Shown: piece by piece, positions 4,282 to 61,581 of the stretch | How the letters are laid out: each line of letters begins with the position of its first letter | Numbering within the stretch: the stretch's first letter is position 1 | NCBI GenBank assembly: GCA_963760615.1 | Contig: CAVXDX010000003.1 | Coordinates: 104,718 to 168,717, forward strand | DNA from: an uncultured Candidatus Micrarchaeota archaeon | GTDB lineage: Archaea; Micrarchaeota; Micrarchaeia; Burarchaeales; Fermentimicrarchaeaceae | Length of the DNA stretch: 64,000 bases | Direction: 5' to 3' | The notes under the pieces: model-generated | Told to the model about the DNA's origin: nothing | What the model saw: only the letters and a program-made list of their open reading frames with translations | The model's database searches: none | Program-made: the position numbers and the translations under genes

Positions 4282-4342
4282 CAAATATAAGCTCTTATTA
4301 CAACATCTTATACAAGCAATAGCTGAAGCATTGCAGTCCTAA

Positions 4343-5914: not shown

Positions 5915-6279
5915 GCTTTCTTCCTTGACTTGACAATCTTCACTTTTGCCGGAGTCAGAAGAATCTTGTCGTTATCTATTCTCGCTATGTCGCCGTCAAT
6001 CTTCATCACGAAGCCCTTCATGCTTGAGACAATCGTCTTCAGCTTCGCTGTGTTTCTCGACATTGGAGCCACATTCAGCAATATTATGTTCCTCTGCCTC
6101 AGCTCATTCTCAATGACCTTCACGTCCTCCTCGCTCTCAAGGGCCACTGGCTTCACGTAGAAATCGGCAGCCTCGTGCAGCACATCCACATTCTCGAGTT
6201 CCACGGTGTCCATGTATTCCTCAATATCCATGTCCTTGCTTATTCCCAGCGCCTTTGACAACTTCTGAAGTATCCCCAT
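5911..6279 (-). CDS. sepF: cell division protein SepF-like (DUF552)
   Basis: 122 aa, MGILQKL...KPVALESEEDVKVIENELRQRNIILLNV typical of archaeal SepF; divergent from orc1. Confidence 0.65.
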   Translation of the reverse strand: MGILQKLSKALGISKDMDIEEYMDTVELENVDVLHEAADFYVKPVALESEEDVKVIENELRQRNIILLNVAPMSRNTAKLKTIVSSMKGFVMKIDGDIARIDNDKILLTPAKVKIVKSRKKA

Positions 6280-6519
6280 GTTTTCACCCCTTTCGAATGC
6301 AACAGTTTAACTTTTCATAAGGGGGTTTAAATACTTTTCTTCTCCACCTCACTCGTTAGCCTTTTAAGTAAAGGAATATCCAAATTAAACACGCAGATTA
6401 CCTAGCTAGAAAAAGCGAAGAGAATTTATCAGATAAACCTGCAAAGAAAAAAATTAAAATAAGCTGAGACGTAGTTCGTAAGCCTTAATAACCTTTTCAC
6501 CTAAAACTACTATTCCTTC
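6280..6519. promoter_or_regulatory. candidate replication origin region (divergent sepF/orc1 intergenic region with AT-rich DUE and ORB-like repeats)
   Basis: TTTTCACC at 6281 and 6493 (GGTGAAAA on the other strand) and CGTGGTGAAC at 6508 in inverted orientation around AAAGAAAAAAATTAAAATAAG; directly upstream of orc1/cdc6. Confidence 0.4.
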
Positions 6520-7734
6520 GTGGTGAACTTAATCGGTGGTTATTTGTTAAGCTCTTTCCAGGACATACTCTCGCGGAGCAGCATCTTCAGAGACAGGAAT
6601 ACGCTCTCTCCGCACTACATACCATCAACACTTCCGCACAGGGAGAAGGAGATAGGCATAGTGATGTCTGCAATCTCTCCAGCGCTGAAAGGAGAGAAGC
6701 CCAGGAGTATGTTCATATACGGCAAAACAGGAACTGGGAAGACCTCCTGCGTGAAATACGTGATGGAGAGATTTGAGGAGATGAAGAGCGGCACGGCAAG
6801 AATGTGCTATGTGAACTGCAGGATATACAACACGCGCTACAGGGTCTTCCACAAGCTTATGAAGGACAGCCTTCCGGAGTTTGCCAAGACGGGATACGGC
6901 CTTTCCTTCTTCTATGAGAAGATGATTGATTTGTTAGATGCGAATGGGACCAACATGGTGATAGTGCTTGATGAGGTTGACATGGTGAGGGATTTGGACG
7001 ATTTGATATACACCCTCACAAGGGCGAATGACGATTTGAAGAAAGGCGGAATGTCAATAATCGGGATTTCAAACAAGCTTTCGTTCAAGGAGAGGCTTGA
7101 CCCAAGGAGCAGGAGCACTCTCTACGAAACTGAGATAGTGTTTCCTCCCTATACTTCAAACCAGCTTAAATCCATTCTTGAGCAGAGAGTGAAGCTAGGC
7201 TTCTCCGAGGGAGCTGTTGATGATTCGGCAATAAACCTGGCATCAGCCATGGCGGCACAGGACAATGGGGATGCGCGCTATGCCCTCAAGCTCATACTGA
7301 GGGCTGCCGAGATAGTTGATGAGGAAGGCGCAGGAGTTGTATCCGAGAGGTATGTAACCGCAGCCAGAAAATCGGTTGACGAGGACGTCTCCATTGAGGC
7401 GATAAGCACACTGCCGCAGCACCAGCAGATAGTGCTTTACTCCATAGCATCTCTCTCCATGGACGGAGGGCGCTACTCCAAGCTAAACGGGAATACCGAG
7501 AACTACCTCCTATCAGGGGAAGTCTATGAAACCTACCTCAGGGATTCGAGAAATTTCAAAAAAGAAGCAAGGAGCGCCCGCTGGTACCGCGAATATCTCA
7601 ATGAGCTTGAGATGCTGGGGCTGATAACCACCGTTGAATCCGGTAAGGGCATGAGAGGGCACACGAGACTTGTTAAGCTCGCCTACTCCCCAGCCAAGGT
7701 CAAGAGCATCATTGAGAAAAATATCCTGGAGTGA
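6520..7734 (+). CDS. orc1: Orc1/Cdc6 replication initiator
   Basis: LSPHYIPSTLPHREKEI N-terminus, Walker A GKTGTGKT, winged-helix C-terminus. Confidence 0.9.
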   Translation: MVNLIGGYLLSSFQDILSRSSIFRDRNTLSPHYIPSTLPHREKEIGIVMSAISPALKGEKPRSMFIYGKTGTGKTSCVKYVMERFEEMKSGTARMCYVNCRIYNTRYRVFHKLMKDSLPEFAKTGYGLSFFYEKMIDLLDANGTNMVIVLDEVDMVRDLDDLIYTLTRANDDLKKGGMSIIGISNKLSFKERLDPRSRSTLYETEIVFPPYTSNQLKSILEQRVKLGFSEGAVDDSAINLASAMAAQDNGDARYALKLILRAAEIVDEEGAGVVSERYVTAARKSVDEDVSIEAISTLPQHQQIVLYSIASLSMDGGRYSKLNGNTENYLLSGEVYETYLRDSRNFKKEARSARWYREYLNELEMLGLITTVESGKGMRGHTRLVKLAYSPAKVKSIIEKNILE

Positions 7735-8325
7735 CTACCAGCCAACCAGCTCTTTCCTGCTTCCAAATACAGCAACCAGCACAAGCAACGGTCCTATAAC
7801 CATAATCCCGTAGAATAAGCTCACATTACTCGTTGGGTTGTCCCTAAAAAACTCTATACCCCCTGGGAGGTTCATCGCTCTCATCAGCTCAACAATGAAA
7901 GTGATGACAGATATGATAATGCCCGCTCTGTATGACCACTTATTTGTTGTCGCAAGCCCCGCCCCAAGGGCGAGGGAGGCAAGCCCAATGGCAAGGGAAG
8001 GTGCTTCAGAAAGCAGCGAATTGTTAAACGTTTCATGCAAACCAATAGAATTGTTGTAGACGAATACGGGTAGGTACCCCAGCAGCTGGTACGAATCGTG
8101 CAAACTGACAATTGCTATAAGAAGCGCAAGCAGGCTGGCCGCAAGAATCTTTAAAGTCAACGATTTTACAGTCTCCTCACGGACTTCTTTTACTATCTCC
8201 TTAAGGCAATCATAGCAGTAAGCCTTGTCGTCTATAAGCTCAACGCATGCTAGGCAGAAATGCTTCTTGCATCTCGCGCACTTGTAGATGCCCTCCTTTC
8301 CTGGGTGGTTGATGCATTCAGCCAA
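7735..8325 (-). CDS. membrane protein with N-terminal zinc-finger (Cys cluster) domain
   Basis: CxxC...CxxC...CxxC N-terminal region followed by hydrophobic helices. Confidence 0.45.
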   Translation of the reverse strand: MAECINHPGKEGIYKCARCKKHFCLACVELIDDKAYCYDCLKEIVKEVREETVKSLTLKILAASLLALLIAIVSLHDSYQLLGYLPVFVYNNSIGLHETFNNSLLSEAPSLAIGLASLALGAGLATTNKWSYRAGIIISVITFIVELMRAMNLPGGIEFFRDNPTSNVSLFYGIMVIGPLLVLVAVFGSRKELVGW

Positions 8326-15718: not shown

Positions 15719-17161
15719 ATGAGATGCAAAAAGGCGCAAATCTCCGGTCTTGACCTTATACTCGCAATAATGCTCTTCTCTCTTGCCCTTATACTCTTTT
15801 CGATTTTATGGGATGTGGTGCAGTACAACGTAAAGACTCAAGCAGATGCTGATATAATTGCCATCCAGGTTGCGAATAGACTCCTAGGCAGCCCAGGCTA
15901 CCCATCTGACTGGAATGCAACGAATGTGCAGCTGATAGGTTTATCATCTGAAAGAGGTGTCATGGACCAGAGCAAATTCCAAAACCTACTTGATCTACTG
16001 GCCCAACCTGGTGGCTATGATCAGGTGAGGCAGATGTTGGGTTTGGGCCCCTATCAGTTTTATATTAGTATGACCAACCCAGACGGCTCTCCAATCCTCA
16101 TCAACGGCCAACCCGCCCAGGGGGGAGACCCCCCAACCAATGCAACCAGTGTGAGCAGCATAAAAAGGACTGCGCTCTACGGCACAATTATGGTGTTCAA
16201 CAACTCAATAACATTCGTCCAGGATTCATCCGGGAGCATGGACTGGTTTTCAACAGGCATAAATTATACGAATTCGAATCTAAGTGCAAGGAATGTATGG
16301 GTCAATATCTACAATGTGAGCTTCCCAAGCTCGCCAACTAGCAATTTTGACTTTATATTTGAGTTCAACGACACCAGCCTCACTGGAGGGAACCAGGTCA
16401 AGCTAAATGTTACAAGTCCTTCTGGTAAGAAATATGCAGTGCCGAACTGCGGCAGCTCGTCAGGCTGCAGCTGCGGGTCTGGGACAAATGGCTGCTTGGC
16501 ATTTTCATACTCTGGAGGAGCGCGCATGAACTTCACACAGGCACTTTGGAATTCCACAGGAGTCTGGCAGGTTTGGATAAGGAAATCAGTGAATAACCCT
16601 ATTACATACGATTCATTTGCTCAAACGCCGCCGAGGAGGATAGATGCTGCAAAAACTGCAATTGATGCCTTTGTTGACGTAATTTCAAACGAATCCAAGG
16701 GACTTGATGAAATGTCGCTGTTCGATTTCAACAGTTGCAACAGCAACATGATAAATGGTTTCACGACAAATTACCCGCAGATTAAATCCAATGTGAATTC
16801 CATAACTGCATCAGGTTCAACACCGCTCGCCCAAGCTATCAGGGATGCGGCCGACTACACAAATTCAAGCTCAACAAGAAAGCACAATATGATAATTGTT
16901 GTGTCAGACGGGCAGGAGACATGCGGTGGGGACATAGTTGCCGCGGCAACCTATGCCGCAGGCAAGGTTCAAAGGATCTGCACTGTAGGGCTGGAGCAAG
17001 GTGGAGATGGTGCAAACCAGCTCACGCAAGCTGCCAAAATAGGGCATTGCCAGTATTACGCTGCAAGAAACGAGCAGCAGCTTGAATTGTACCTGAGACA
17101 ACTCTACTTCGGGACTCTTGCGAAGGAGACAGTGGTGCTCAACATAGTGGTATGGAGATGA
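15719..17161 (+). CDS. pilin-like protein with class III signal peptide and vWA domain
   Basis: N-terminus MRCKKAQISGLDLILAIMLF (archaeal type IV prepilin-like); DSSGSM MIDAS motif and SGSTPL...VVSDGQET vWA elements. Confidence 0.65.
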   Translation: MRCKKAQISGLDLILAIMLFSLALILFSILWDVVQYNVKTQADADIIAIQVANRLLGSPGYPSDWNATNVQLIGLSSERGVMDQSKFQNLLDLLAQPGGYDQVRQMLGLGPYQFYISMTNPDGSPILINGQPAQGGDPPTNATSVSSIKRTALYGTIMVFNNSITFVQDSSGSMDWFSTGINYTNSNLSARNVWVNIYNVSFPSSPTSNFDFIFEFNDTSLTGGNQVKLNVTSPSGKKYAVPNCGSSSGCSCGSGTNGCLAFSYSGGARMNFTQALWNSTGVWQVWIRKSVNNPITYDSFAQTPPRRIDAAKTAIDAFVDVISNESKGLDEMSLFDFNSCNSNMINGFTTNYPQIKSNVNSITASGSTPLAQAIRDAADYTNSSSTRKHNMIIVVSDGQETCGGDIVAAATYAAGKVQRICTVGLEQGGDGANQLTQAAKIGHCQYYAARNEQQLELYLRQLYFGTLAKETVVLNIVVWR

Positions 17162-24239: not shown

Positions 24240-25610
24240 TTGATGAAAAAAGGGCAGAGCTGGGCGGAGTACATAACAGTTCTTGCAGTTACCATCATAA
24301 TGGCGGGAATTGCCATGTACATGGCCGGCGCCTTCATGGGGAACAACAGTCAGATTTCTGAGAGGGACAGTGCATCATACTGGTTTTCAGCCGATGTAGG
24401 GATTACAAGATACTATGTAAACTCCTCAGCCGCGCAGCTCCTTATAAAGAATAATAAGAATTTCAAAATAAATGTGACAAATATAAGCTCTACAGGTGCT
24501 GGAATTCTGATTGCGCCAGGCGGAGCCAACAACGTAGTGCTAGATCCAGGCCAGAGCGTGCAGGTTACCGCGCCAGGCTTGACATGTCTAAGTGGAACAT
24601 ACTCAATTCCCTTGGTTATAACTTATGCGGATGTGAATTATGGCACGAAATATACTGTCTATGGTGAGAAACCACTTATTGGGCAATGCATGAGTTCAAT
24701 CGCACCTCCTCAATGCTCTCCGTTATGCAACTCCCCAAATGATCCAGCATGCAACGATGGGGTTGCATGCACTGCCGATGCATGTACTAACCCCGGCACT
24801 TGCAATGCAGTCTGCACCCATACGCCGATAACCGCTTGCATAAACAATGATGGCTGCTGCCCAACTGGATGCAGTTTATTGAATGACAACGACTGTCCCC
24901 CAGCCTGCGGCAATGGAATATGCGAGACGGGCGAGACATATTCAAACTGCCCAGGTGATTGCTGTCTAAGTGCCTGCACTGCAACGTATGATAATAAATG
25001 CCATTCAAATTGCATTAACTTCCCAATTTCCGCGCCATGCTCCAACTTCAAGCCTGCATGCGATACAATCACCAGGGGCACCTCCGTATGCTACAACTCC
25101 ACCCACAACGTTTCCTGCTGCGATGGGACACCAACAAGCTGTGCAACAAACAGTACCCCGTGCAATGCATACTGCAATGCAAACCAGAACTGCACCTTCC
25201 CTTCCAACCCAGTAACATGTCAGAGGACGTGTAATCCAACTAGTGGTCTCTGCCAAGATTGCACTCCTTCATGCGGAACTGCCACATGCACCGGCTGCGG
25301 AATAAACAGCATTCCATGCAATTCATACTGCAGTGTAAGGCGGAGGTGCGTCTATCCATCTAACCCCGCAACATGCACTAAAACATGCAGCGGAGGTTCC
25401 TGCCAGCTTTGCACTCCTTCATGCGGAACTGCCACATGCACAAACTGTGCAGCAGGATGCATAGGAGCAGGTGTCTGCGTGCCATTCTGCACAGGAGCTG
25501 GCGATACCTGTAATGTAAACTGTGCATGTCCAACCAGTGGAAAGACAAAATGTTGTACTTCAGACGGTAAGTGCTATACGCCTTCAACACCATGTCCGTC
25601 CCCGTTATAA
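24240..25610 (+). CDS. Cys-rich secreted pilin-like protein (class III signal peptide)
   Basis: MMKKGQSWAEYITVLAVTIIMAG prepilin-like N-terminus; over 60 Cys; tandem about 47-aa repeats containing CTPSCGTATCT. Confidence 0.6.
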   Translation: MMKKGQSWAEYITVLAVTIIMAGIAMYMAGAFMGNNSQISERDSASYWFSADVGITRYYVNSSAAQLLIKNNKNFKINVTNISSTGAGILIAPGGANNVVLDPGQSVQVTAPGLTCLSGTYSIPLVITYADVNYGTKYTVYGEKPLIGQCMSSIAPPQCSPLCNSPNDPACNDGVACTADACTNPGTCNAVCTHTPITACINNDGCCPTGCSLLNDNDCPPACGNGICETGETYSNCPGDCCLSACTATYDNKCHSNCINFPISAPCSNFKPACDTITRGTSVCYNSTHNVSCCDGTPTSCATNSTPCNAYCNANQNCTFPSNPVTCQRTCNPTSGLCQDCTPSCGTATCTGCGINSIPCNSYCSVRRRCVYPSNPATCTKTCSGGSCQLCTPSCGTATCTNCAAGCIGAGVCVPFCTGAGDTCNVNCACPTSGKTKCCTSDGKCYTPSTPCPSPL

Positions 25611-34017: not shown

Positions 34018-34539
34018 CTAAGAATACCTGATAACCAGCGTTCCATTGACAAATTTAACCGCTCCTGTTTTTACTTCGGTATAAGTGACATACATGTTCC
34101 CGTAATAGATGTCGCCAACTGATGCATTGGGAACGCTCCAGCCATCCTGCCCCGTGCATATGACGATGTTCCCGCTGTTTCCGCCTGCTATGTAGTTCCT
34201 CTCCCCATTCGTTATAAGAACTGGGTTGCTAAGAAGCGGCATCACAGAAGGGTTGCCAATTCTGCTTGTGCACACGAAGGAAGTTATGTTTATCAATTTC
34301 CCGGTGTTCTGCACTAGCGAAATATCCAGTATGCCGTCTCTCCTGAGAGCTAGCGGTTGGTAGCACGAGAAGTTCCCATGAAACTCGCATACTCCATAAA
34401 ACGTTTGCACTGTAGGCACAGGCGTGTAGGGAGTGTTGAGGTAAAGGTATACCACAAGCAGAATTATAAGTGCCGAGGCAAGTCCGATTTCCCTGTTGGT
34501 CGCCTGTCCCCTTTTCATGCACTCAACTGCCGTAGCCAA
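34018..34539 (-). CDS. archaeal type IV pilin-like protein
   Basis: MKRGQATNREIGLASALIILLVV class III signal peptide. Confidence 0.55.
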   Translation of the reverse strand: MATAVECMKRGQATNREIGLASALIILLVVYLYLNTPYTPVPTVQTFYGVCEFHGNFSCYQPLALRRDGILDISLVQNTGKLINITSFVCTSRIGNPSVMPLLSNPVLITNGERNYIAGGNSGNIVICTGQDGWSVPNASVGDIYYGNMYVTYTEVKTGAVKFVNGTLVIRYS

Positions 34540-35305
34540 GTGTAACTTCGAACGGTCCGCTTGTCACCCCGGAAACGCTTGCGGTGACTACTGTATATCC
34601 AGTGGTCATCAAGAAAGCATGGGCAGTTCCGTTCACCGTTGGCGAATAATCATCTATAACTCCTATGGGAACATGGAAATGCACGAGCGTTCCGTCAGGT
34701 AATGGGTTTCCAAATGAATCAGTCACAGTAGCGGTTATATTCACGAACTCAGTCCCACCCGCAGTGTAGTTTCCTTTACTGCCTACTACTATATACTTCG
34801 GGTTTGGCGCGTAGGCAGGCGCCAGGCTTATGACAATCATCCCGTTTATATTCTGGGCGTACATCTGCCCGCCGGAGAAGCTGTAATTGCTCCCCTGCAG
34901 CACATACCCATAAGGTGTCCCATCAGGCAATGTGGCAACTATGCTGGGCACAACGACAACGTTGGTGGTTATGACAGGAAATGAGTGCGAGTAGTTCACA
35001 GTCCCAAGGCTGAATTGAATGTCAACGCTTTTTGAGATGTTATTCAGTATGATTGTATAGGGTGTAACGCCATCAAGCATAACTGGGTATATAATTTTTC
35101 TTGAGTAACCTGTGCCTGATCTAGCAGCAAGATTCAGCTCAGATGCAAACTGCTCGCCAACGCTATCAGCCAAGGCTTCTTTTGAACGTTCCATCTCTGC
35201 TGAACGCTGCTGGCTGAAGTTCGCCACAAAGATTGTGAAAATCAGCATTACGAACATGTATATGACCAGCAACTCGTTAGCGCTCTGACCCTTTGAGCTG
35301 ACCAT
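34523..35305 (-). CDS. archaeal type IV pilin-like protein
   Basis: MVSSKGQSANELLVIYMFVMLIF class III signal peptide. Confidence 0.55.
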   Translation of the reverse strand: MVSSKGQSANELLVIYMFVMLIFTIFVANFSQQRSAEMERSKEALADSVGEQFASELNLAARSGTGYSRKIIYPVMLDGVTPYTIILNNISKSVDIQFSLGTVNYSHSFPVITTNVVVVPSIVATLPDGTPYGYVLQGSNYSFSGGQMYAQNINGMIVISLAPAYAPNPKYIVVGSKGNYTAGGTEFVNITATVTDSFGNPLPDGTLVHFHVPIGVIDDYSPTVNGTAHAFLMTTGYTVVTASVSGVTSGPFEVTLGYGS

Positions 35306-35313
35306 GCTACCAC

Positions 35314-35775
35314 CTAACTCCTCTCAATGTAAACGCAGTTCTGCGTCGGATCAACCTGTGTGCAGTTGTCCTCAGCATATATCTTTATGAAATATGTTCC
35401 AGGCCTGGCTATTGTCGTAAGGTCCCCCGCGATATCCGTCACAGTCCATCCAACTATCTGCGTGGTGCCGGCACTTGTTCTCAGCGTGATCACCACTTCA
35501 TGCCCTATTCCTCCAGTAGCATTCCCAACTGATATACTGCCCACATTCTGCGGCATGAACACCTGTATGCTCATCTTTGCAGGGTATCCCTGCGCCCCAA
35601 CAACGTCGGCGTAGTTGGCTATCTTTGTTGCGGTCTGCTGGGCTTGCTGTATGGCAAGCTGGTCTGCCACATTAGCGCTTTGCAGGTATGCTATGAGAAG
35701 AAGAGGGAACATTATGGTCACTACAAACGCAACAGTTATCATTATCTCTGTGCTTGCCTGGGCCTTTACCCTCAT
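35314..35775 (-). CDS. archaeal type IV pilin-like protein
   Basis: MRVKAQASTEIMITVAFVVTIMF class III signal peptide. Confidence 0.55.
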   Translation of the reverse strand: MRVKAQASTEIMITVAFVVTIMFPLLLIAYLQSANVADQLAIQQAQQTATKIANYADVVGAQGYPAKMSIQVFMPQNVGSISVGNATGGIGHEVVITLRTSAGTTQIVGWTVTDIAGDLTTIARPGTYFIKIYAEDNCTQVDPTQNCVYIERS

Positions 35776-48747: not shown

Positions 48748-51700
48748 ATGATGAAAAAATTGGTTTTTTTAACGGTCTTCCTACTTCTCATGACTCCTTC
48801 ATCTTATGCTTCTTTAACCTACCCAACCTCACCAAAAGGCACACCAAGAATTTCAAAGCAGTATATGATGCCTGCCCCAACAATCTACACGGTAAATGGC
48901 CTTTACCAAATAAACATGACAGGCCTGAGCGACTTTGACCGTCCCGGTAAACCCATTCTTCCTTTTAAGACCGTCAGCCTGCTTCTGCCTCTTGACCAAT
49001 CATTTAACAGCGTCGAGGTGATTCCTAGCCAAAGAACAGAGATAGGAAACTATAAAATCAACTATGGCAGAGTAGAACTGCCTTTGAACTGGGGTTCCGA
49101 TGCTTATGTAACGAAAAAATTCTCGAATGTAACAACAGTAATAAATCAAACTGTCTATTCTCAAAACAGTGAGTATCCCGGAGTGCTTTACTCTGTAGGA
49201 TCAATCTCAATCTTCAGAGGCTATAAGATAATTATTGTAAATCTTTATCCTGTTCAGTATATACCCAGCACAGGAGAAGTCTACTATTTCAAATCAATTA
49301 CTGTCAATGTTTATACAGATAATGTTACGTCAATCCCATCTACCTTCAGAGGCCTTGACACAGACAAGGCAGATGTTTCATCTATGGTAAGTAATCCTGA
49401 GGATATTGTTACATACAATTCTTCATATAAGTATGTTCCATCTAAAAACGAGTTTGGAACCGCCTCTCTAACTCCGGCCCAATGGGACTACGTTATCATA
49501 ACCTCAAGCAGTCTTGCAAGTGCTTTCCAACCACTACTTGATTACAAGAACTCTCAGGGTATCAAGACAACCATAGAGACTGTTGAAAACATTTACTCCA
49601 AATATTCTGGCAAGGATCAGCAAGAGCAGATTAGGAATTTCATCAAGGATGCTTACACAAACTGGGGCATCAAGTATGTTCTTTTAGGCGGTGACGGTTC
49701 TGGAGTAAATGTCGGAGGAGAGAGCGGGGTCAACATAATTCCAACAAGATATTTGTATCCTAGATTTAGTCAGGCAGACGATGCAATCCCATCTGACATT
49801 TACTATAGCGATCTAGAAGGCTCATTCGATAGCAATGGCAACGGCTATTACGGCGAGCCAGGAGATGGATGCGATATCAATCCATCCACTTGCGAGGTTG
49901 ATTTGTATGCTGACGTCTATGTCGGCAGAGCAACAGTTGCTAATGTTCAGGATGTTAATAATTTTGTTTCAAAGACTATTGCTTATGATTCTGAAAGCAT
50001 AAGCGACCCTCACAAGGGCGAGGCATTGATGGTTGGTGAGTATCTTGGCTTTGGAGGCGTTGCAAACTATGCAACTAATAGCAAGGAAGAGGTGAGGCTA
50101 GGCTCGAACCAGAACGGCTATACAACAGCAGGTTTCTATCCGGGCTACTCTGTAGATCTGATGTATGACTCCCCTGCTCACACCTGGTCAAAGGATGACT
50201 TGATTTCAAAGATCAATAACAATTCCGCCAACATCATCAATCATCTCGGTCATGGCAGCACTTTATGGGTTATGAAGCTCTGCAACGCTCCTTACTCACA
50301 ATCAGGTCCTTACTGCGGAGACAGCGGTGTCACGGATCTCAGCAGTCTTAGCAACACGAAATATTTCTTTGCCTACAGCCAAGCATGCTATTCAGGAGCA
50401 TTTGACAACTGGAATTATCAAGGTATGTACACAATGTCCGATTCAATAGCAGAGCATCTTGTCAAGGATGCTCACGGCGCTTTCGCTGTGGTAATGAATA
50501 GCAGATATGGGTGGGGTCAATTATTTTCTACTGACGGTGCGTCAGAGAGATATGACAGGCAGTTCTTCGATGCAATCTTTGGGCAGAACATCACAGAGTT
50601 GGGTAAGGCAAATACATACTCGAAGGAAAAGAACATCGGCTATCTATCTTCATCCGATCCAGCTGAAGCAGGCGTGATGAGATACGTCTACTACGAGACA
50701 AACCTTTTAGGAGATCCGACTACCCAGCTGCAGACAGACTATACAAAGCCTCAAGCTCTTATCACATCTCCGCAAATGGATGACATTTCTTACGGCTCAA
50801 TAAATGTCAGTGGGTATGCAAAAGCGGGTAAAGCAGCAGGTTCGACATTTAGGAACTATAAAATCTTTTACGGCACTGGAATGTTTCCTACTGTTTGGAA
50901 TTCTACTGGCGTGACTTTGGTTAACTATGGGTTGAGACCTGTGGACAATAATAGTCTGGGAACGATTGATACAACTCTTTTTTATGATGCGGACACTGAT
51001 TTTACAGGATGGGATTATTACGCCTATTATTGGGGAAGTGGTGCCGGTGCTTATTCAATCAAGCTGGTAGTTTACGATAACCTCGGAGCATCAACTGAAA
51101 GTATAACTCGTGGTGTTGGAGTTCATAATATAGTGCTGAACCAGCCAATGCCAAGAGATGTCTTAGGACCGATAACTGAAATAAAAGGGACTGTTTCAAG
51201 CGGGTATGCCAATCCTCTTACATCTTATAGTATTGTATATCAGCCACAAAATACTACGGGATGGTCTGCGAGTGGAATAACACTAACTAACAGTGGAACA
51301 CAGCCTGTTTATAACGGTGTCTTGGGAGTTTTGAACGCCGGTGGATTAAATACTGGATGGTATACCTTTAGATTAATAGCTGTTTATACGTATAATACTA
51401 AAATGCAGACCATAGAAAATGTTTATATTGATACAACCTTAAGACCTGGTTGGCCGCAAAGAGTTTATTTTCAAGGTATAGATAATCCTTACTTTTGGAC
51501 TTCCCATATTGTTTCAAGTGGAATTAATATCAGCAATCTTAAAAACTTGAGTATTAATTTAAGCTCATATGGTAAAATTGCCCCAGGAGGTAATATAGTA
51601 AGTAGTGTAAATTACCCTCTTTATAATATATCTAGTTTATCATCTGGATTTGTCAGTCCTTATCAGCCAGGAAACTTTGAGCCAGTTGTTAGCGATATCA

Positions 51701-54270
51701 ACGGTGACGGCAAGGATGAAATAATAGTTTTTCAACCAGGAGAGAATACTGCTAGTTTTGGACAAGAAGTCCCAGGAATAATATCTGTTTTCAGTCAAGA
51801 TGGAACACTTTTATATAATTGGTCTATACCAAGTCCTACTATTCCGCCTGGTGGTCTTGGTACCCCTTTAGGTGGAATGGGTTCAGTGTGGCTTCCACCA
51901 TTTGCAGTTGCGCCTCCTTCTGTTGCAAATATAGACGGTGATAATGATGAAGAAATTGTAATCCCAGTTGCTCCTGCCCCTACAGAAGTTGCTACTTTAA
52001 ATGTTTATGAATATAACGGCACATTATTAAAAACTCTAGATTCTTCAAGAGATAATTATGATTTTAGGAATGAGCCTCTAATAGCAAATTTGTTCAATAA
52101 TGGAACTATGTATGTTGTAAAAAAAGTTGATTATTGCGAAATAGAGCAGCCTCAACCGAACGTACATGAATGGGATGCTTGCTTGAAAGTTTATGACCCT
52201 CAAGGGAATATGCTAAACGGTTGGCCTGTTTCAACCAAGCCTTCCGCCGGAGCGCTAATAATGTTTGGAAAAGTTAATCCAAATCAAGTTGTTGGTCATT
52301 TTGAAAACAATAAGAACTCGGACATTGTCGACTTTTCTACTGTTCATTGGAATCCTCGGGGTAATCGTGATGGCCTTAAACTCACTGTTTATACGCCAAA
52401 CGGAACCATTCTCCCAGGATTTCCTGTTGTATGGGATGACGGTCTTATCCACACAGCCTCAGACCCTGTTGTAGGAGACATTAACAGGGATGGAAAAGAT
52501 GAAATAATTTTTGTTCATAATGGCGGTACTCTAACTGCCGTAGATAGTAATGGCAATACACTGTGGACTCAGAATTTTCAAGTGCAAGGAGCAGGAGGTA
52601 ATACTTATCAGTATTCAAAATCTCCTGCTTTGATTGATATTAATCATGACGGTTATCTAGAGATTGTATTAGTAACAGGTAGTCACGAATACATCGTAGA
52701 TCATACAGGAAATATTATTAAAGATTTTATAATAGCATATGGTGTTAGTAATATGGCAACTGCCCAATTTGATGATAATGCTGCTCCTATAACCGAAAAG
52801 TCACCTGTAGTCGTTGATTTGAATAATGATGGCGTTTCTGACATTTTGACAACATCACAGAATTGGGAAGCTTATAATGGTGGAGACTTTGTCGGATTTG
52901 ACGACATTCAAGAGATTCATGCCTTCAATCCTTTGGACATTAATAACAGCTCATGTTTTGACAGTAATAATGTATACCTGTGCGAAAAGAAATACTTTCC
53001 AGGTTTTCCAAAAATTATGGAATCTTCAATTTTCTTTTATGCATCTCCAGTGATTATTAATAAGGATGGAAAGGTTGAAATAGTAGCAACTTCAAGTATG
53101 GATGACCTTTTTAAAGGAAGAGCAAGCATCTATGTTTGGGATACTAACATAACTTATGGACCAGAAGCAGCATCGTGGCCTATGTTCCAGCACGATGAGA
53201 TGCATACTGGCAGGTTTGTATTCCCACTAACTCTAGTCCAATCCGTCAATCCCGCATCCGGAACTGCAGTTGCACCGGTCACACCAACATTCATCTGCGG
53301 TTATTATGACACAAATAATGCTCCAATACTTGGAGCCAGTGTTAATGTCACCATTGACTCAAATATTCACACTGCAACCTACAACTCAACTACTGGTGAT
53401 TACCGCTATTCAGGCCTGACGCTCACTACGGCAACCCATAAATGGTACTGCAGTGCGTCAGCATCAGGATACAACACCAAGATAGGTGCTAACCAGACGT
53501 ATCTTTTTGTAACCCCCATGCCGGTAGCAGCCCTCAAAGGAGGCCCAAACGGACAGCTATATGTCCCCAACATAACAGGCATCAATTACCTGAAAGTGGA
53601 TTTGTGGTGCAACATGAGCAACACAGACTGCCAGTTTATTGGCGGCAGGCAATACTGCGGTTGCACACGCATGCAGTGCGACCAGACAGGAGCCACTGCG
53701 GCAAACCGACCATACCCAACAATAACAAACTGGCCGGACGGCAGGATTAACCTGCAGGACACAATGTTTGAGAACCTCAATTTCGGTCAGAACGAAGGCA
53801 TGCCTGCCTGGAACTACACGGCAGACTGTATTCCAGACAGGAGGACTAACCTGCAGGATACTGCTGGTGCAAGCTACAGATTTGGAGCAATAGGCGGAAC
53901 CTATTCCAACAACACTGCAAATATAAAAGTCCTTTTCAACAATGACCCAAGCTTCAAGATGCCCGATGTATACGGATACATACAGATTCCTTCAGGTGCT
54001 GTGAACTTCACTGTATATAACGGAACAAAGCCAGTGATGGCGCTGGTGACATTCTACAACAGCTCAATCTTATACCAACTCGCACCTGCAACCAAACCAA
54101 GCACTCAAGTCCAGACAACAGCTCTTATGGCACCAACCGTTGAGATGCCGGTAGGAAACACATGGACGATGGCAGTGGTTCTCATAGCAATAATAGGCTT
54201 GGTGATTGGCTACTTCATCCTAAAGGAAATTCTGTACATAAGCGTCCCAAGAAAAAAGAAGAGAAAGTAG
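48748..54270 (+). CDS. giant secreted surface protein: peptidase C25 (gingipain-like) domain + FG-GAP/beta-propeller-like repeats + C-terminal TM anchor
   Basis: Signal peptide MMKKLVFLTVFLLLMTPSSYA; C25-like segments YVIITSSSLASAFQPLLDYKNSQGIKTT, YVLLGGDGS, INHLGHGS (His) and YSQACYSGAF (Cys); repeated DINGDGKDEII/DINRDGKDEII/DLNNDGVSDI; C-terminal TM + KKKRK. Confidence 0.7.
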   Translation: MMKKLVFLTVFLLLMTPSSYASLTYPTSPKGTPRISKQYMMPAPTIYTVNGLYQINMTGLSDFDRPGKPILPFKTVSLLLPLDQSFNSVEVIPSQRTEIGNYKINYGRVELPLNWGSDAYVTKKFSNVTTVINQTVYSQNSEYPGVLYSVGSISIFRGYKIIIVNLYPVQYIPSTGEVYYFKSITVNVYTDNVTSIPSTFRGLDTDKADVSSMVSNPEDIVTYNSSYKYVPSKNEFGTASLTPAQWDYVIITSSSLASAFQPLLDYKNSQGIKTTIETVENIYSKYSGKDQQEQIRNFIKDAYTNWGIKYVLLGGDGSGVNVGGESGVNIIPTRYLYPRFSQADDAIPSDIYYSDLEGSFDSNGNGYYGEPGDGCDINPSTCEVDLYADVYVGRATVANVQDVNNFVSKTIAYDSESISDPHKGEALMVGEYLGFGGVANYATNSKEEVRLGSNQNGYTTAGFYPGYSVDLMYDSPAHTWSKDDLISKINNNSANIINHLGHGSTLWVMKLCNAPYSQSGPYCGDSGVTDLSSLSNTKYFFAYSQACYSGAFDNWNYQGMYTMSDSIAEHLVKDAHGAFAVVMNSRYGWGQLFSTDGASERYDRQFFDAIFGQNITELGKANTYSKEKNIGYLSSSDPAEAGVMRYVYYETNLLGDPTTQLQTDYTKPQALITSPQMDDISYGSINVSGYAKAGKAAGSTFRNYKIFYGTGMFPTVWNSTGVTLVNYGLRPVDNNSLGTIDTTLFYDADTDFTGWDYYAYYWGSGAGAYSIKLVVYDNLGASTESITRGVGVHNIVLNQPMPRDVLGPITEIKGTVSSGYANPLTSYSIVYQPQNTTGWSASGITLTNSGTQPVYNGVLGVLNAGGLNTGWYTFRLIAVYTYNTKMQTIENVYIDTTLRPGWPQRVYFQGIDNPYFWTSHIVSSGINISNLKNLSINLSSYGKIAPGGNIVSSVNYPLYNISSLSSGFVSPYQPGNFEPVVSDINGDGKDEIIVFQPGENTASFGQEVPGIISVFSQDGTLLYNWSIPSPTIPPGGLGTPLGGMGSVWLPPFAVAPPSVANIDGDNDEEIVIPVAPAPTEVATLNVYEYNGTLLKTLDSSRDNYDFRNEPLIANLFNNGTMYVVKKVDYCEIEQPQPNVHEWDACLKVYDPQGNMLNGWPVSTKPSAGALIMFGKVNPNQVVGHFENNKNSDIVDFSTVHWNPRGNRDGLKLTVYTPNGTILPGFPVVWDDGLIHTASDPVVGDINRDGKDEIIFVHNGGTLTAVDSNGNTLWTQNFQVQGAGGNTYQYSKSPALIDINHDGYLEIVLVTGSHEYIVDHTGNIIKDFIIAYGVSNMATAQFDDNAAPITEKSPVVVDLNNDGVSDILTTSQNWEAYNGGDFVGFDDIQEIHAFNPLDINNSSCFDSNNVYLCEKKYFPGFPKIMESSIFFYASPVIINKDGKVEIVATSSMDDLFKGRASIYVWDTNITYGPEAASWPMFQHDEMHTGRFVFPLTLVQSVNPASGTAVAPVTPTFICGYYDTNNAPILGASVNVTIDSNIHTATYNSTTGDYRYSGLTLTTATHKWYCSASASGYNTKIGANQTYLFVTPMPVAALKGGPNGQLYVPNITGINYLKVDLWCNMSNTDCQFIGGRQYCGCTRMQCDQTGATAANRPYPTITNWPDGRINLQDTMFENLNFGQNEGMPAWNYTADCIPDRRTNLQDTAGASYRFGAIGGTYSNNTANIKVLFNNDPSFKMPDVYGYIQIPSGAVNFTVYNGTKPVMALVTFYNSSILYQLAPATKPSTQVQTTALMAPTVEMPVGNTWTMAVVLIAIIGLVIGYFILKEILYISVPRKKKRK

Positions 54271-57438: not shown

Positions 57439-58302
57439 CTAACCCCAGGGGGATATACCCACCAGCCTCATCATTATCAGGTATTTCACAAGCGGGAAGA
57501 GCAGAAGGTAAAATGGGGCCACCAGGGGTATTGCTATTCTGAAGCCGGCGAGTATGGAGCCCTGCGAGAGCAGCAGGACCAACAAGCCTGGCACTATGCC
57601 AGTGAGGAATATGAGAAATATGGAATATTTCACTGATTCATTCGTGTATACTGATATGGAGCTCCTTCTTGAAGTCTCAATTTCTCTTATGAAGCTCTCA
57701 AGGACATTCACTATGTTGACACCACTCCCCATCGCATAGCTCAGTGTTGCGACAAACCTCTGGAAAGTAACCGAGGGGGTCCTCATGGAAATCTCCACGA
57801 ATGCATCGCTTATTTCCTCCCCTTCCTTGATTCTCACCAGGCTCTGCCTGAACAGCTCGGAGACGACACCATAATTCTCTCTTGCGATGGACTCTATTGC
57901 ATCATGCAGCGGTATGCCCGAACGCAGTTCTGAAAGCAGATGTCTCAGCGAGTCAAGCAGGTTCAGGTCGACATCCCTCTTCCTGCTGTTCACTATGAAA
58001 TCAAAATAGCTGACTGCCATAAATGTTGAAACAAAAAGCATTATAAGAGAGAGAAAGAGAGCGAGGTAAATGGTGAATTGAAAGTAGGCTGCGATAAAAG
58101 AAAAATAAATCGCTGAGAGCACGAATGAAGTTACTCCCACACCAACTACAAATGAGGAATAACCCCCGGGCGTTATATCTATGCCAGACTGCAGTATCCT
58201 TAGCTTGGTTGCCCTTGAAGTGGGTATCACCCTCTGCGGGTTTATACCGAGTTTTGAGAAAATCTTTGACCAGAACGCTGAGAAATCCACTACAAAATCC
58301 AT
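57439..58302 (-). CDS. TadC/FlaJ-like (T2SS F-domain) membrane platform protein
   Basis: 287 aa, T2SSF-like cytoplasmic domain (LRHLLSELRSGIPLHDAIESIA) flanked by TM helices. Confidence 0.65.
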   Translation of the reverse strand: MDFVVDFSAFWSKIFSKLGINPQRVIPTSRATKLRILQSGIDITPGGYSSFVVGVGVTSFVLSAIYFSFIAAYFQFTIYLALFLSLIMLFVSTFMAVSYFDFIVNSRKRDVDLNLLDSLRHLLSELRSGIPLHDAIESIARENYGVVSELFRQSLVRIKEGEEISDAFVEISMRTPSVTFQRFVATLSYAMGSGVNIVNVLESFIREIETSRRSSISVYTNESVKYSIFLIFLTGIVPGLLVLLLSQGSILAGFRIAIPLVAPFYLLLFPLVKYLIMMRLVGISPWG

Positions 58303-58306
58303 AGGC

Positions 58307-58543
58307 TCACTTCAGGATACTCTTTATCCTTGGCATGAATTCCTCCCTCTTGTTCCTTGGGGTGTTGTAGTATGCGTGAATCACCTTTCCGACATCAAAG
58401 AAATTCGTTATGCCGTTATTCGCAAGGTAGTTCAACACCTGCGCCCTCCTTTTGAATTCATCGCGGAGTTCCCCCTCTGTAAGATTGAAGCTCTGGGCGT
58501 ACTTATTCAGCGTTTTTGAGGGGTATCGGCCGAACACTCTCAA
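58307..58543 (-). CDS. small hypothetical protein in the secretion-ATPase operon
   Basis: 78-aa ORF filling the 200-nt gap between the ATPase and tadC; overlaps the ATPase 3' end by 41 nt. Confidence 0.3.
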   Translation of the reverse strand: MRVFGRYPSKTLNKYAQSFNLTEGELRDEFKRRAQVLNYLANNGITNFFDVGKVIHAYYNTPRNKREEFMPRIKSILK

Positions 58544-60527
58544 GCTCGCTCTTCTTCTCGTTGAACTCGTAAAGCTTGTTGAGGAAGCCCACTTCCTCCC
58601 CCTCCCTCCAAACCTGATCCCTCATTTTTGTCGGAATGGTGTCCTTTCCAAGCATGCCTTCAATCTCATCTGGAATTTCACCTCTGGAGCGCCAGTTCAC
58701 CTCTGAGCACTGTATCACCCTTCTTTTCTTCTCGACATCTGTTGAGAGTGTTATTATTATGTCAAGCATCGATAGCATGTCGCTTGGAACCTTCATTGGC
58801 GGTCCGTGTATCCTTTTCACAACTGCAGTTCCAACCTCCTTTGAATGCAGTGTAGTCATGAAGGATATGCCCCAGTTGGCTCCTGAGAACAGCTCTCTGG
58901 CTTCACTCCCCCGGAGCTCCCCCAGCACAATTCTGTCCGGCCTCATCCTCAGGGAATTGGTTATCTGGTCCATGGAAGTTCTGAGCCTTGCAACCTCCTC
59001 GCCCTTCCTCATTGCCTCATCCTTCCTCTCCTGGTAAACCCCGATAAGCGGAATCCAGTTTATGAACTTATCATAGAATCTGAGCTCGTTTATCTCCTCC
59101 TCAACCGATATGACCCTCTCGCCTGCAGGGATGAAGACAAGCAGAGAGGAAAGAAGGGACGTCTTTCCTGTTGCAGGTGCGCCCGTGATTATCATCTGGG
59201 ATTTCTTGAGCTCTATGGCCATCCAGAGGAACGCGCCAAGCTCCGCATCAACGGTTCCGGCATTCATTATCTTCGTATACGTCCAGGGGTCGCTCCCGAA
59301 GAGCCTTATGCTGGCGGTTGCGCCTGTGAGGGAAGCTGGAGCAATCTGGGCATGAAGCCTTGAACCGTCAGGAAGCTGGGCATCAACCACAGGGTGTATC
59401 ATGTCAAGCGATTTGCCAAGAGGCCTCAGAATTGCATTCATAACTTTCTTGAATGACCTGTCGCTCGTGAACCTCAGATTTGTTATGCACCTTCCATGCT
59501 TCCTGTGGTAGACAAGAATTTCCCTCAGCGGGTGGTCAATTTCTATCTCCTCAAGATTTTCCCTGTCCCTCATCCAGAAGTACTCTATGGCGCCAAAGCC
59601 TATAGTGTCAATTGCCACTATCTCCGCTATGGACTCCTTCTTCTCCGGGTCCAGGGTCGGCTCAAGCCTGTTTAGTATATCCCTTGCTATGAGCTTGACC
59701 TTGTTGATAGCCTTAGACCTCATCTCCAGATTGAAATACTCCGGAGGGGTGAGGAACGCCGACAGGTATTCATCGGCAACTTTCATTATTGTGAAATGCT
59801 TCACATACTCAGCAAGCTTCCAGTCATCTGAGAACAGCTTTGGGAAGCTTATGCAGTACGTCCTCCCCAAATCCTCCACATCGAATATCTTAACCCTCCC
59901 ATACTCGTCAACCAGTCTAGCATCCTTGCCCGGCGGCGGGAACTCAAGAACACCAAACGAGAAAGGAGCGGAGAACCTTTTATCTATGCTCTCCGGTGAA
60001 AGTGGCTCCCTGTATCTGATGGTGGGTATGTCCTTGCCCTCTCCTATGAAATGCGGCTCAAATCCTTTCTCATAGAACTCCTCAGATTCATGTTCTTTCT
60101 TGGCTTCTGAGATATCCTCCTCAACTTCATAGACTTCAAGAGCGCCGTGGGGGCAGAATGTAACACATATTGGGTTTGACAGCTTTAGAGAGGAGCATAG
60201 GTCGCATTTGACGGATACCTTCATGCCCTTCTTATTCTTCTTCAGCTTTATCCCGCTGGTCTTGCATTCCGAAACGCATGCGCCGCAGCCGTCGCATTTC
60301 TCAGGGATTACCTGTATTATGCCATTCTTGTCTATCCTGAGAGCGTTGTTCATGCACGCCTTGACGCAGACCGCATACTTCGGGTTGCATTGCGTGCAAT
60401 ACTGCAACTCCCCTCCCGCTATGGACAGGACTCCTTTTGGGCATACCCTTGTGCAGTAGTTGCATTGCGGTGCCTTGCACTTCTCCTCAATCCACCTAAG
60501 CTTCTTCATAAAACGACCGGGAAACAC
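58503..60527 (-). CDS. FlaI/VirB11/TadA-family secretion ATPase with N-terminal tandem 4Fe-4S ferredoxin-like domains
   Basis: Four Cys clusters (CKAPQCNYCTRVCP, CTQCNPKYAVCVKAC, CDGCGACVSEC, CDLCSS...CVTFCP); Walker A GAPATGKTS, Asp box DRIVLGELRGSEA, His box TLHS. Confidence 0.75.
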   Translation of the reverse strand: MFPGRFMKKLRWIEEKCKAPQCNYCTRVCPKGVLSIAGGELQYCTQCNPKYAVCVKACMNNALRIDKNGIIQVIPEKCDGCGACVSECKTSGIKLKKNKKGMKVSVKCDLCSSLKLSNPICVTFCPHGALEVYEVEEDISEAKKEHESEEFYEKGFEPHFIGEGKDIPTIRYREPLSPESIDKRFSAPFSFGVLEFPPPGKDARLVDEYGRVKIFDVEDLGRTYCISFPKLFSDDWKLAEYVKHFTIMKVADEYLSAFLTPPEYFNLEMRSKAINKVKLIARDILNRLEPTLDPEKKESIAEIVAIDTIGFGAIEYFWMRDRENLEEIEIDHPLREILVYHRKHGRCITNLRFTSDRSFKKVMNAILRPLGKSLDMIHPVVDAQLPDGSRLHAQIAPASLTGATASIRLFGSDPWTYTKIMNAGTVDAELGAFLWMAIELKKSQMIITGAPATGKTSLLSSLLVFIPAGERVISVEEEINELRFYDKFINWIPLIGVYQERKDEAMRKGEEVARLRTSMDQITNSLRMRPDRIVLGELRGSEARELFSGANWGISFMTTLHSKEVGTAVVKRIHGPPMKVPSDMLSMLDIIITLSTDVEKKRRVIQCSEVNWRSRGEIPDEIEGMLGKDTIPTKMRDQVWREGEEVGFLNKLYEFNEKKSELESVRPIPLKNAE

Positions 60528-60719: not shown

Positions 60720-61193
60720 CTAAACGACGCTGAGCTGAACTGTCTTATTTATATCAAGAGAGATGGGCAGGTTGAGTGTTGCACTTACATACCACCTCAC
60801 CTGAGAGGGCGCAGCCCCTAAGCCCTCCGCTATTCCAACTATGTCTGCTGCCAGTCCTTCCAGCTTTGGTGGCTCTGGCATTTTAGGCACTGTTATCTCA
60901 AACTGGTACTCCCCACTGGTATACTCCTTCTCCCCTCCGAGAGTAAGCTTGAACTCATAAACTATGTCTTTACGACTCGTTGGTCTTTCCACAGATTTAT
61001 GGCTTGCAGAATCAAATGTTTGACTTTTCGTTCTCACACTCCTCTCGCCCCAAAACCTCACCCCGAGTTCCCTGGCCTTCTTGGGAGAATTAAGCTGAAG
61101 TTTTACAGTCCCCTTTATTTTGTCACCTGGCGAGTAGTTTACCTTATCCAGGGTTACATCCATTCTGCCCTCACCAATACCAAAAACCACCAA
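60720..61193 (-). CDS. Spo0M/arrestin-N-like protein
   Basis: VTLDKVNYSPGDKIKGTVKLQL arrestin-like N-terminal strand pattern. Confidence 0.4.
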   Translation of the reverse strand: MVVFGIGEGRMDVTLDKVNYSPGDKIKGTVKLQLNSPKKARELGVRFWGERSVRTKSQTFDSASHKSVERPTSRKDIVYEFKLTLGGEKEYTSGEYQFEITVPKMPEPPKLEGLAADIVGIAEGLGAAPSQVRWYVSATLNLPISLDINKTVQLSVV

Positions 61194-61260: not shown

Positions 61261-61581
61261 ATGAAAGCGAAGGTACTTCTGCTGTTGTTAGTGCTAGGCA
61301 TTGTCTCAGCACAGGTGGCTAGCACAGATGTTAGAACCACGCTATGTCCTCTTGTAACGCTCGTGAGGCAGATTGGGGTTTTCATTGCCATAGTGATGCT
61401 CTCCTATGCCGGCATAAGCTTCATGACATCCGGCAGCGATCCAATGAGGCACAAGGAAGCAGAGAAGAGGCTCGAATATGTCATAATAGGCATATTGATT
61501 CTCATAATGGCTTTCTACATAGTTGCAAGAATGTTCGCCGGGGTGAATGTGCTCAGCGGCGGGGACTGCCCTTGGGTCTAG
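61261..61581 (+). CDS. small signal-peptide + two-TM membrane protein, VirB2/TrbC-pilin-like topology
   Basis: Signal peptide MKAKVLLLLLVLGIVSAQVA, two TM helices separated by a charged loop (TSGSDPMRHKEAEKRLEY). Confidence 0.35.
   Translation: MKAKVLLLLLVLGIVSAQVASTDVRTTLCPLVTLVRQIGVFIAIVMLSYAGISFMTSGSDPMRHKEAEKRLEYVIIGILILIMAFYIVARMFAGVNVLSGGDCPWV

Follow-up and report, generated by a model that had tools for sequence, protein, structure and literature searches.

A type IV pilus-type ATPase with a tethered, predicted four-cluster ferredoxin-type module in Candidatus Micrarchaeota

The motors of type IV filaments rank with the most widespread nanomachines of prokaryotes. Control inputs known for them are nucleotide second messengers, partner proteins and a structural zinc site. 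One such input, the MshEN domain, is the cyclic di-GMP (c-di-GMP)-binding N-terminal input domain of PilB/MshE-type ATPases. In DPANN archaea, pili are leading candidates for host attachment. Here we describe a motor gene on the minus strand of a 64,000-nucleotide (nt) stretch of DNA (contig CAVXDX010000003.1, positions 104,718 to 168,717; hereafter the window) from an uncultured Candidatus (Ca.) Micrarchaeota archaeon, in which a secretion-type ATPase is fused to an N-terminal cysteine-rich domain of the iron–sulfur (Fe-S) type. A census of archaeal type IV pili mentions no Fe-S domain on these ATPases (PMC4858521), and a 2024 review of PilB regulation has none either, the only metal site mentioned being a C-terminal zinc site (PMC11656802). 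No Fe-S domain was present in the solved FlaI, GspE, PilB, PilT, CpaF, DotB and VirB11 structures among our PDB matches, and the full-text literature that we searched holds no description of one on any T2SSE-family ATPase. A preliminary description of this DNA, made from its letters alone, had stated that such a domain is absent from characterised FlaI, PilB, PilT and VirB11 proteins, and this statement held across the matched structures, the reviews and the literature searched. The automatic annotation of homologue P0002 by the Joint Genome Institute (JGI) lists both COG names, so that a machine has already labelled the architecture, although we found no description of it within that literature. 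In the fusion, an ATPase of the type IV filament kind carries an accessory domain of a new class.

Anatomy of the fusion protein

We have high confidence in the anatomy taken alone: an ATPase of the pilus type to which a four-cluster ferredoxin-type module is tethered. Its parts lie as follows (positions are those of the window; residues are numbered from the ATG at 60509).

58307–60509 (−): full Fe-S/ATPase fusion gene, 733 amino acids (aa) after removal of an extra G (tblastn; the repaired translation equals homologue P0001)
60117–60509 (−): N-terminal CooF/HycB-type module, aa 1–131, predicted 4×[4Fe-4S] (Pfam, AlphaFold2, Foldseek and PDB profile search)
60441–60479 (−): Cys group I, C-x4-C-x2-C-x3-CP, CKAPQCNYCTRVC(P); C11, C16, C19 and C23 invariant in 13 sequences
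60354–60398 (−): Cys group II, C-x2-C-x6-C-x3-C, CTQCNPKYAVCVKAC; C38, C41, C48 and C52 invariant in 13 sequences
60264–60296 (−): Cys group III, CDGCGACVSEC, a classic CxxCxxCxxxC; C72, C75, C78 and C82 invariant in 13 sequences
60153–60206 (−): Cys group IV, C-x2-C-x9-C-x3-CP, CDLCSSLKLSNPICVTFC(P); C102, C105, C115 and C119 invariant in 13 sequences
59985–60116 (−): acidic disordered linker, aa 132–175 (AlphaFold2 predicted local distance difference test (pLDDT) score below 50)
58806–59486 (−): T2SSE (RecA-like) ATPase core, aa 342–568 (Pfam T2SSE)
59157–59183 (−): Walker A, GAPATGKTS; G443, G448 and K449 invariant in 48 sequences
59082–59120 (−): Asp box, ERVISVEEEINEL; E470 and E475 invariant in 48 sequences
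58911–58940 (−): Walker B with catalytic Glu, PDRIVLGELR; G530, E531 and R533 invariant in 48 sequences
58842–58856 (−): His box, TTLHS; T553 and H555 invariant in 48 sequences

The protein contains 19 cysteines, 16 of them in the first 131 residues and 3 in the next 528. The 16 N-terminal cysteines fall into four groups of four (I–IV), which are the four clusters that the preliminary description had placed in the first ~130 residues, including the classic CxxCxxCxxxC and two CP endings. Alignment of 13 N-domains (36–89% identity) gave 26 invariant columns, 16 of which are Cys, so that every cysteine of the module is kept down to 36% identity. Pfam recognised Fer4_7 (39.3 bits, cut-off 27), Fer4_6 (37.4, cut-off 25) and Fer4_9 (35.1, cut-off 27) at the N terminus; Fer4_10 scored roughly at its threshold in the window protein, and Fer4_11, below threshold there, was recorded for homologues P0009, P0012–14, P0027 and P0125. 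The C-terminal half scored 77.2 bits against Pfam T2SSE (cut-off 24.9), and the Fer4 plus T2SSE combination proposed earlier for checking was thus found with both parts above their gathering cut-offs.

An AlphaFold2 prediction for the N-domain, built from the 13-sequence alignment, reached a mean pLDDT of 87 in the best model. Foldseek matches to the PDB covered the full length of the domain, and those at the top were all small four-cluster electron-transfer subunits: the AOR small subunit (9mqx_E/G; E 4e-9, TM 0.72), the WOR5 small subunit (6x6u_B; TM 0.74), HycB of formate hydrogenlyase (7z0s_B; TM 0.75) and HycB3/HycB4 of HDCR (7qv7; TM 0.69–0.74), with PsrB, ArrB and FdnH further down. A profile of the domain searched against the PDB retrieved polyferredoxin MvhB (8e-31), the AOR small subunit (7e-18) and other four-cluster subunits. 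The nearest free-standing relatives, found by profile search of a 5.8-billion-protein set, are 130–220 aa long, all carry Fer4_11 and are labelled CooF or "Fe-S-cluster-containing hydrogenase component 2". We regard the module as a CooF/HycB/AorA-type unit predicted to bind four [4Fe-4S] clusters; its modelled fold is the nested four-cluster CooF/HycB/DmsB type and not two tandem ferredoxins. The earlier proposal of two ferredoxin-like 2×[4Fe-4S] units was therefore right in its number of clusters, and the Foldseek and profile matches refine their arrangement from tandem to nested.

No zinc-ribbon family appeared among the Pfam or NCBIfam matches, nor among the Foldseek matches listed for the N-domain, and a zinc-ribbon or other non-Fe-S fold was effectively ruled out by the Fer4 scores above cut-off together with the confident four-cluster fold model. 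The Fe-S part and the ATPase part share one reading frame, with no stop or frameshift between them. We give next to no credence to the idea that the cysteines belong to a zinc ribbon or another non-Fe-S fold, or that two separate genes were falsely joined into the open reading frame (ORF): only the generic ambiguity of Cys-rich sequence speaks for it, whereas the Fer4 scores exceed their cut-offs, zinc-ribbon families go unmatched, all 16 cysteines are invariant and an identical single-ORF architecture recurs in ~16 independent assemblies. Neither of the two observations that the preliminary description had named as fatal to its reading (a zinc ribbon, or a frameshift or stop between the domains) was made.

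The Walker A motif, Asp box and His box noted earlier are all present in the ATPase part, together with a Walker B motif, and by these conserved boxes the enzyme appears to be catalytically intact. AlphaFold2 modelled the full 733-aa protein with a mean pLDDT of 86.6, confidently for residues 1–131 and 176–733 and as disordered for 132–175. In Foldseek searches, the body (176–733) matched GspE of A. fulgidus (2oap; E 5e-37, TMt 0.79) and FlaI (4ii7/4ihq; TMt 0.70–0.78), and also CpaF, with VirB11, PilB and PilT more distant; sequence matches in the PDB (2oap 4e-43, CpaF 3e-29, FlaI 2e-26) came in the same order as in the fold search. The two-domain fold that defines the secretion superfamily, an N-terminal domain followed by a RecA-like C-terminal domain, was found both by Pfam (T2SSE) and by Foldseek (2oap). 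All NCBIfam equivalog cut-offs were missed (FlaI, 157 versus 550, NF058587; TadA, 116 versus 373; VirB11, 100 versus 250, TIGR02788), which rules out orthology to FlaI, VirB11 or CpaF. The body is a member of the secretion superfamily with the archaeal GspE/FlaI fold and not an orthologue of any characterised enzyme. Its N-terminal extension begins after the linker, at a YVGDGK motif. The linker itself spans ~45 residues in the window protein and differs greatly in length among aligned homologues; in P0009 it contains a large extra low-complexity insertion rich in Ala, Gly, Pro and Gln (alignment A2, columns about 150–230), which suggests that tether length is unconstrained.

Both ends of the gene needed correction, at the following positions in the case of the 3′ end.

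58528–58531 (−): frameshift site, extra G at 58530 and synonymous C/A at 58528 (comparison with Logan contig L001)
58307–58528 (−): C-terminal helical tail, aa 661–733, in the displaced frame, RYPSKTL...KSILK followed by the stop codon (matches the P0001 tail)

The ORF listing of the window gives a minus-strand ORF of 674 aa at 58503–60527, and these were the boundaries in the preliminary description; the fusion that it reported stands, and the boundaries do not. All of the closest homologues start with MKKLRW, which corresponds to the ATG at 60509, six codons inside the mechanical GTG start at 60527, and this ATG is most likely the true start. At the other end, the four closest homologues have 732–733 aa as against 674 aa for the window ORF. 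Relative to L001, the window carries an extra G at 58530, which produces a +1 frameshift and the stop at 58503, and a synonymous C/A difference at 58528. A tblastn search with P0001 placed aa 1–666 in one frame (60509–58512) and aa 654–733 in the next (58549–58310); a 78-aa ORF in the other frame (58307–58543) encodes exactly the C-terminal tail of the homologues, and removal of the G yields a 733-aa translation identical to P0001 that ends at 58307. The tail has a weak PilB3_C-like match in Pfam (23.4 bits, below the cut-off of 27). In L001 and six other Micrarchaeota genome loci, the ORF is intact (732–733 aa). The early stop is most likely a local sequencing or assembly consensus error, because the 7,623 nt shared by the window and L001 differ at only two positions, both at the frameshift site (58528–58531) and within 3 nt of each other; a very recent genuine lesion is a less likely alternative. 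Were the lesion genuine, the gene would be a recent pseudogene in this genome that has lost its last 73 conserved residues. The window sequence as given, with its extra G at 58530 and stop at 58503, is what speaks for this, but two differences in 7.6 kb confined to 3 nt are the typical pattern of a consensus error, and the ORF is intact in all other genomes and under strong purifying selection; we consider a pseudogene improbable.

Distribution, selection and loss of the module

Orthologues with the same fusion, for which the preliminary description had suggested a search, were found in frame in ~16 independent Micrarchaeota loci: as a single ORF in eight Ca. Micrarchaeota genome loci and eight metagenome contigs. 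Among the fusion-bearing genomes are that of Ca. Fermentimicrarchaeum limneticum Sv326, which is complete, the metagenome-assembled genome (MAG) Sv174 (two copies) and Alinen bin-3476 (two paralogues). Between the window gene and four relatives, the ratio of non-synonymous to synonymous substitution rates (dN/dS) was 0.03–0.05 for the Fe-S part and 0.04–0.075 for the ATPase part, with dS high and, for some pairs, saturated. The fusion is genuine and under strong purifying selection. It is also rare: among 1.84 billion cluster representatives, only P0001, P0019, P0115 and P0125 aligned co-linearly from the N terminus. A motif scan of the fetched proteins revealed four further, shorter Fer4–T2SSE fusions (P0048, P0057, P0120 and P0247), two of which adjoin T2SSF genes on archaeal contigs; these four, together with P0115 and P0125, were judged archaeal from neighbouring genes for PAC2 (proteasome assembly chaperone) and an archaeal AdoMet synthase. 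A scan of viral contigs found no relatives of the fusion, so that, locus L009 with its plasmid-like appearance aside, there is no indication of an ATPase from a mobile element.

Two of the multi-copy cases differ in their divergence. Loci L013 and L009, both in MAG AlinenSediments_bin-3476, encode proteins that are each 46–48% identical to the query; loci L005 and L008, both in MAG Sv174, encode proteins 92% and 94% identical to it, and a mixture of strains in the bin, and not genuine paralogy, may account for this latter pair. On the two contigs that encode the P0057 and P0048 fusions (L085, 6328–8548; L086, 7368–9786), a PAC2 gene follows the ATPase and platform genes, an arrangement that points to a separate conserved neighbourhood in another archaeal lineage.

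The nearest orthologues without the module come from Burarchaeum-type Micrarchaeota. They are 57–62% identical over the ATPase and begin directly after the position of the linker, at the conserved YVGDGK. No Fe-S gene lies upstream of the Fe-S-less orthologues P0008 and P0011, where the upstream gaps measure only about 110–160 nt, which rules out a split gene with a separate Fe-S protein beside them. In a neighbour-joining tree of 335 core columns, computed without bootstrap support, the Fe-S-less orthologues nest inside the Fe-S-bearing clade, and Fe-S-bearing forms also occupy several deeper branches. This nesting tentatively suggests that the module was secondarily lost in the Burarchaeum-type proteins. 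The Fe-S module is dispensable in evolution and probably accessory to the ATPase.

The locus and the machine it serves

The neighbouring and pilin-like genes of the window that bear on the machine are listed below.

57439–58302 (−): gene for a T2SSF platform protein, separated by 4 nt from the repaired ATPase gene upstream of it (Pfam T2SSF 59 bits)
60720–61193 (−): Arrestin_N-like 157-aa protein immediately upstream on the same strand (Pfam Arrestin_N 35.9 bits, weak Spo0M match)
61261–61581 (+): TrbC/VirB2-like small membrane protein, divergent neighbour (Pfam T4SS_pilin 37.9 bits, TrbC 32.3)
34018–35775 (−): three-gene cluster of class-III pilin-like genes (class-III signal peptides)
24243–25610 (+): pilin-like 455-aa protein with a weak UpsA-like N terminus (class-III signal peptide)
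15719–17161 (+): pilin-like 480-aa protein with a VWA domain, possibly a tip adhesin (class-III signal peptide)

Every related locus that we examined has a T2SSF gene immediately downstream of the ATPase. In L013, L095, L098, L099 and L009 the order is Fe-S–ATPase, T2SSF and a second T2SSF-like gene, which in L009 and L013 is followed by genes with class-III signal peptides; by its gene content, the L009/L013 arrangement appears to be a canonical archaeal type IV pilus operon. The loci of the Fe-S-less orthologues (L003, L012 and L015) have the same layout, with a second T2SSF gene and class-III pilins. The window-type clade (the window, L001, L005–L008, L010, L014 and L087–L091) has one T2SSF gene only, and no pilin gene was found within 8 kb of the ATPase in this clade; the second platform gene and adjacent pilins have been lost or relocated there. 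The pilin-like genes of the window lie ~22–43 kb from the ATPase, and no T2SSE ATPase other than the fusion is encoded in the 64 kb. Among the neighbouring genes, Pfam and NCBIfam scans recovered no archaellum family, save a weak, far sub-threshold ArlJ/FlaJ match on the T2SSF gene. Since T2SSF is always next to the ATPase, and sister loci add a second T2SSF and class-III pilins, the fusion appears to be the assembly ATPase of a type IV pilus (type IV filament), with somewhat lower certainty in the window-type clade. The preliminary description had recognised a filament or secretion ATPase, which stands, and had missed that the machine is a type IV pilus, and not an archaellum or a type IV secretion system (T4SS).

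A different machine was also considered, in which the window-type ATPase would act much as VirB11 does, for a filament or DNA-transfer apparatus of the VirB2/TrbC type (T4SS- or Ced/Ted-like), a proposal compatible with the other alternatives weighed here. The TrbC/VirB2-like gene lies upstream of the fusion in nine loci (L001, L005, L006, L008, L009, L010, L087, L088 and L089), including L009 at about 48% ATPase identity, where its block also includes genes for a VirB4-like ATPase and a polytopic membrane protein; window-type loci, moreover, no longer have a second platform gene or pilins beside the ATPase. The T2SSF partner, a hallmark of type IV filaments, is nevertheless always kept, the scores put the ATPase much nearer to archaeal GspE, CpaF and FlaI than to VirB11, and the window contains class-III pilin-like genes, while no VirB4 homologue was found in it, the VirB4-like gene having been seen in L009 only. 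The TrbC-like gene and the fusion are linked by association only, and we think such an apparatus quite improbable.

In the L009 block itself (2259–7758), the TrbC-like gene is grouped with the VirB4-like ATPase (TraG P-loop 94 bits, PrgI-like N terminus), a 314-aa polytopic membrane protein and a 517-aa secreted protein; judged by gene content, a T4SS- or Ced/Ted-like set seems to adjoin a type IV pilus operon here. The Arrestin_N-like gene, which lies between the TrbC-like gene and the ATPase, is kept in L001, L005, L006, L010, L087 and L089, with split hits in L088. Downstream of T2SSF, loci of the window-type clade carry genes for AMMECR1, a PAS_10 protein and a LigD 3′-phosphoesterase-domain protein with overlapping stop and start codons. 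Elsewhere in the window, 48748–54270 (+) encodes a secreted protein of 1840 aa with a gingipain-type propeptide, Peptidase_C25 (214 bits), FG-GAP repeats and, at the C terminus, a transmembrane anchor bearing a basic tail. It is a candidate large surface protease or adhesin of this host-dependent archaeon.

Possible role of the module and comparison with known systems

Group 4e [NiFe] hydrogenases couple to ferredoxin. The relative Ca. Fermentimicrarchaeum is reported to be a fermenter with such a hydrogenase, and type IV pili together with the lack of an electron transport chain are reported as general features of Micrarchaeota (PMC8561730). Within such a cell, the tethered module could exchange electrons with the low-potential ferredoxin pool, lose clusters in O2, or both; the state of the clusters would report the redox state of the cell to the hexameric motor, and this report could tune hexamer assembly, docking or ATP turnover. 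ATP-driven pilus assembly, and with it attachment to a surface or host, would then be gated or tuned in an anaerobic fermenter. We favour such an accessory redox or O2 input because the module can be dispensed with and is joined to the motor by a disordered linker whose length varies, and we infer that it lies outside the core mechanism of the motor. The relatives of the module carry electrons at low potential. The statement as a whole, anatomy plus redox-input role, is tentative, and we would put it slightly short of an even chance. Several points weigh against it. The known Fe-S sensors FNR, NreB, WhiB-like proteins and IscR use one cluster, and four clusters spaced as in CooF/HycB are, by analogy, typical electron-wire anatomy, from which a pure sensor would not be the obvious expectation. 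Neither a redox partner gene nor an oxidoreductase conserved beside the fusion loci was found in the neighbourhoods examined. Window-type loci are without a second platform gene and adjacent pilins, which makes the filament less certain than in sister loci, and the frameshift as given displaces the last 73 conserved residues into the next frame, so that this copy of the gene may be impaired if the frameshift is genuine.

The same anatomy could instead serve as a structural or assembly checkpoint, in which the clusters stabilise an N-terminal docking domain and cluster loading, dependent on Fe-S supply and anoxia, is needed for the motor to fold or assemble. Parallels exist in ABCE1/Rli1, with its N-terminal di-cluster domain, and in subunit D of archaeal RNA polymerase (RNAP), with its cluster domain; the module is N-terminal on an ATPase, as in ABCE1, and has weak matches to an RNAP subunit D model (NCBIfam, E 2e-4) and to ABCE1 chains (Foldseek, E about 0.07–0.1). 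Its dispensability in Burarchaeum-type orthologues and the failure to find a redox partner nearby also agree with a checkpoint. The best fold and profile matches are, however, bona fide electron-transfer subunits and not ABCE1, four clusters and 16 cysteines under strong purifying selection would be costly for a mere scaffold, and the long disordered tether speaks against a rigid, ABCE1-like mechanical role; a checkpoint is therefore unlikely in our view, though to be kept in mind.

If the module were a working electron wire, the six modules of a hexamer would hold 24 clusters and carry electrons between ferredoxin and a partner at the membrane-proximal face, or, in a variant, would perform ATP-coupled low-potential electron transfer; the fusion would then be a physical link between electron flow and the assembly of the filament. 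The closest relatives of the module (CooF, HycB, AorA, WOR5-S, PsrB, FdnH and MvhB) are all electron conduits, and the cysteines of all four clusters are conserved. HDCR HycB3/4 and AorA polymerise into wires. No acceptor is evident, however, as T2SSF, the pilins and the TrbC-like protein are without a recognised cofactor-binding family; a conserved oxidoreductase was not found in the neighbourhood, and the apparent loss of the module where the ATPase is kept argues for an add-on rather than a coupled redox enzyme. A wire of this kind has a slim chance of being right. Slimmer still is the chance that a ring of up to 24 [4Fe-4S] clusters forms a true relay from the ferredoxin pool to the filament base (for example for ATP-coupled electron transfer or for redox exchange at cell–cell contacts), or energises a VirB2/TrbC-like hybrid apparatus.

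With an accessory redox input as the favoured reading, the fusion hints at filament assembly that responds to the redox state of the cell. A conserved and selected polyferredoxin module on the motor would add redox or Fe-S status as a direct input to this class of machines, and the fusion offers a purifiable handle on how an obligately anaerobic symbiont times the building of its attachment apparatus. Although the proposed role is read from a domain fusion in uncultivated organisms, it is directly testable with a purifiable protein, and the natural Fe-S-less orthologues provide a ready-made comparison for the role of the module.

Among described systems, the four-cluster subunits (CooF, HycB, AorA/WOR5-S, PsrB/NrfC and FdnH/DmsB) share with the module its 16 cysteines, four groups and spacings; the predicted fold matches theirs over the whole domain (TM 0.69–0.75), and the same families were recovered in profile searches. 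CooF/HycB/AorA-type proteins are free-standing oxidoreductase subunits, whereas here a covalent tether joins the module to a motor ATPase, with no oxidoreductase nearby, and group I of the fusion family has an unusual C-x4/5-C first spacing. The body shares its fold, catalytic boxes and T2SSF partner with A. fulgidus GspE (2oap), FlaI/ArlI (4ii7, 4ihq) and CpaF/TadA (8rkd). Unlike the fusion, those structures have no Fe-S domain; the fusion has its own N-terminal extension from YVGDGK, and its locus is without archaellum genes. ABCE1/Rli1, whose clusters are not known to catalyse redox reactions, resembles the fusion in carrying an N-terminal ferredoxin-like Fe-S domain on a mechanochemical ATPase. 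It has two clusters on an ABC ATPase, compared with four predicted clusters on a RecA-like secretion ATPase, and its domain is rigidly packed in contrast to the flexible tether of the fusion, the Foldseek match being weak (E about 0.07–0.1). The C-terminal tetracysteine zinc motif of GspE/PilB, which is essential for function (PMC11656802), is likewise a Cys-based metal site on a secretion ATPase (predicted in the fusion); it is a single Zn site in the C-terminal domain, and the fusion, with 3 cysteines outside the N-module, is without the motif. The N-terminal input domains of PilB/MshE-type ATPases (PMC11656802) differ in that the fold, ligand and signal of MshEN and of the PilZ–FimX partners are not those of the fusion, for which we infer regulation through Fe-S clusters; the logic that would be shared is that of a sensory module, placed N-terminal to the motor, that controls the building of the pilus.

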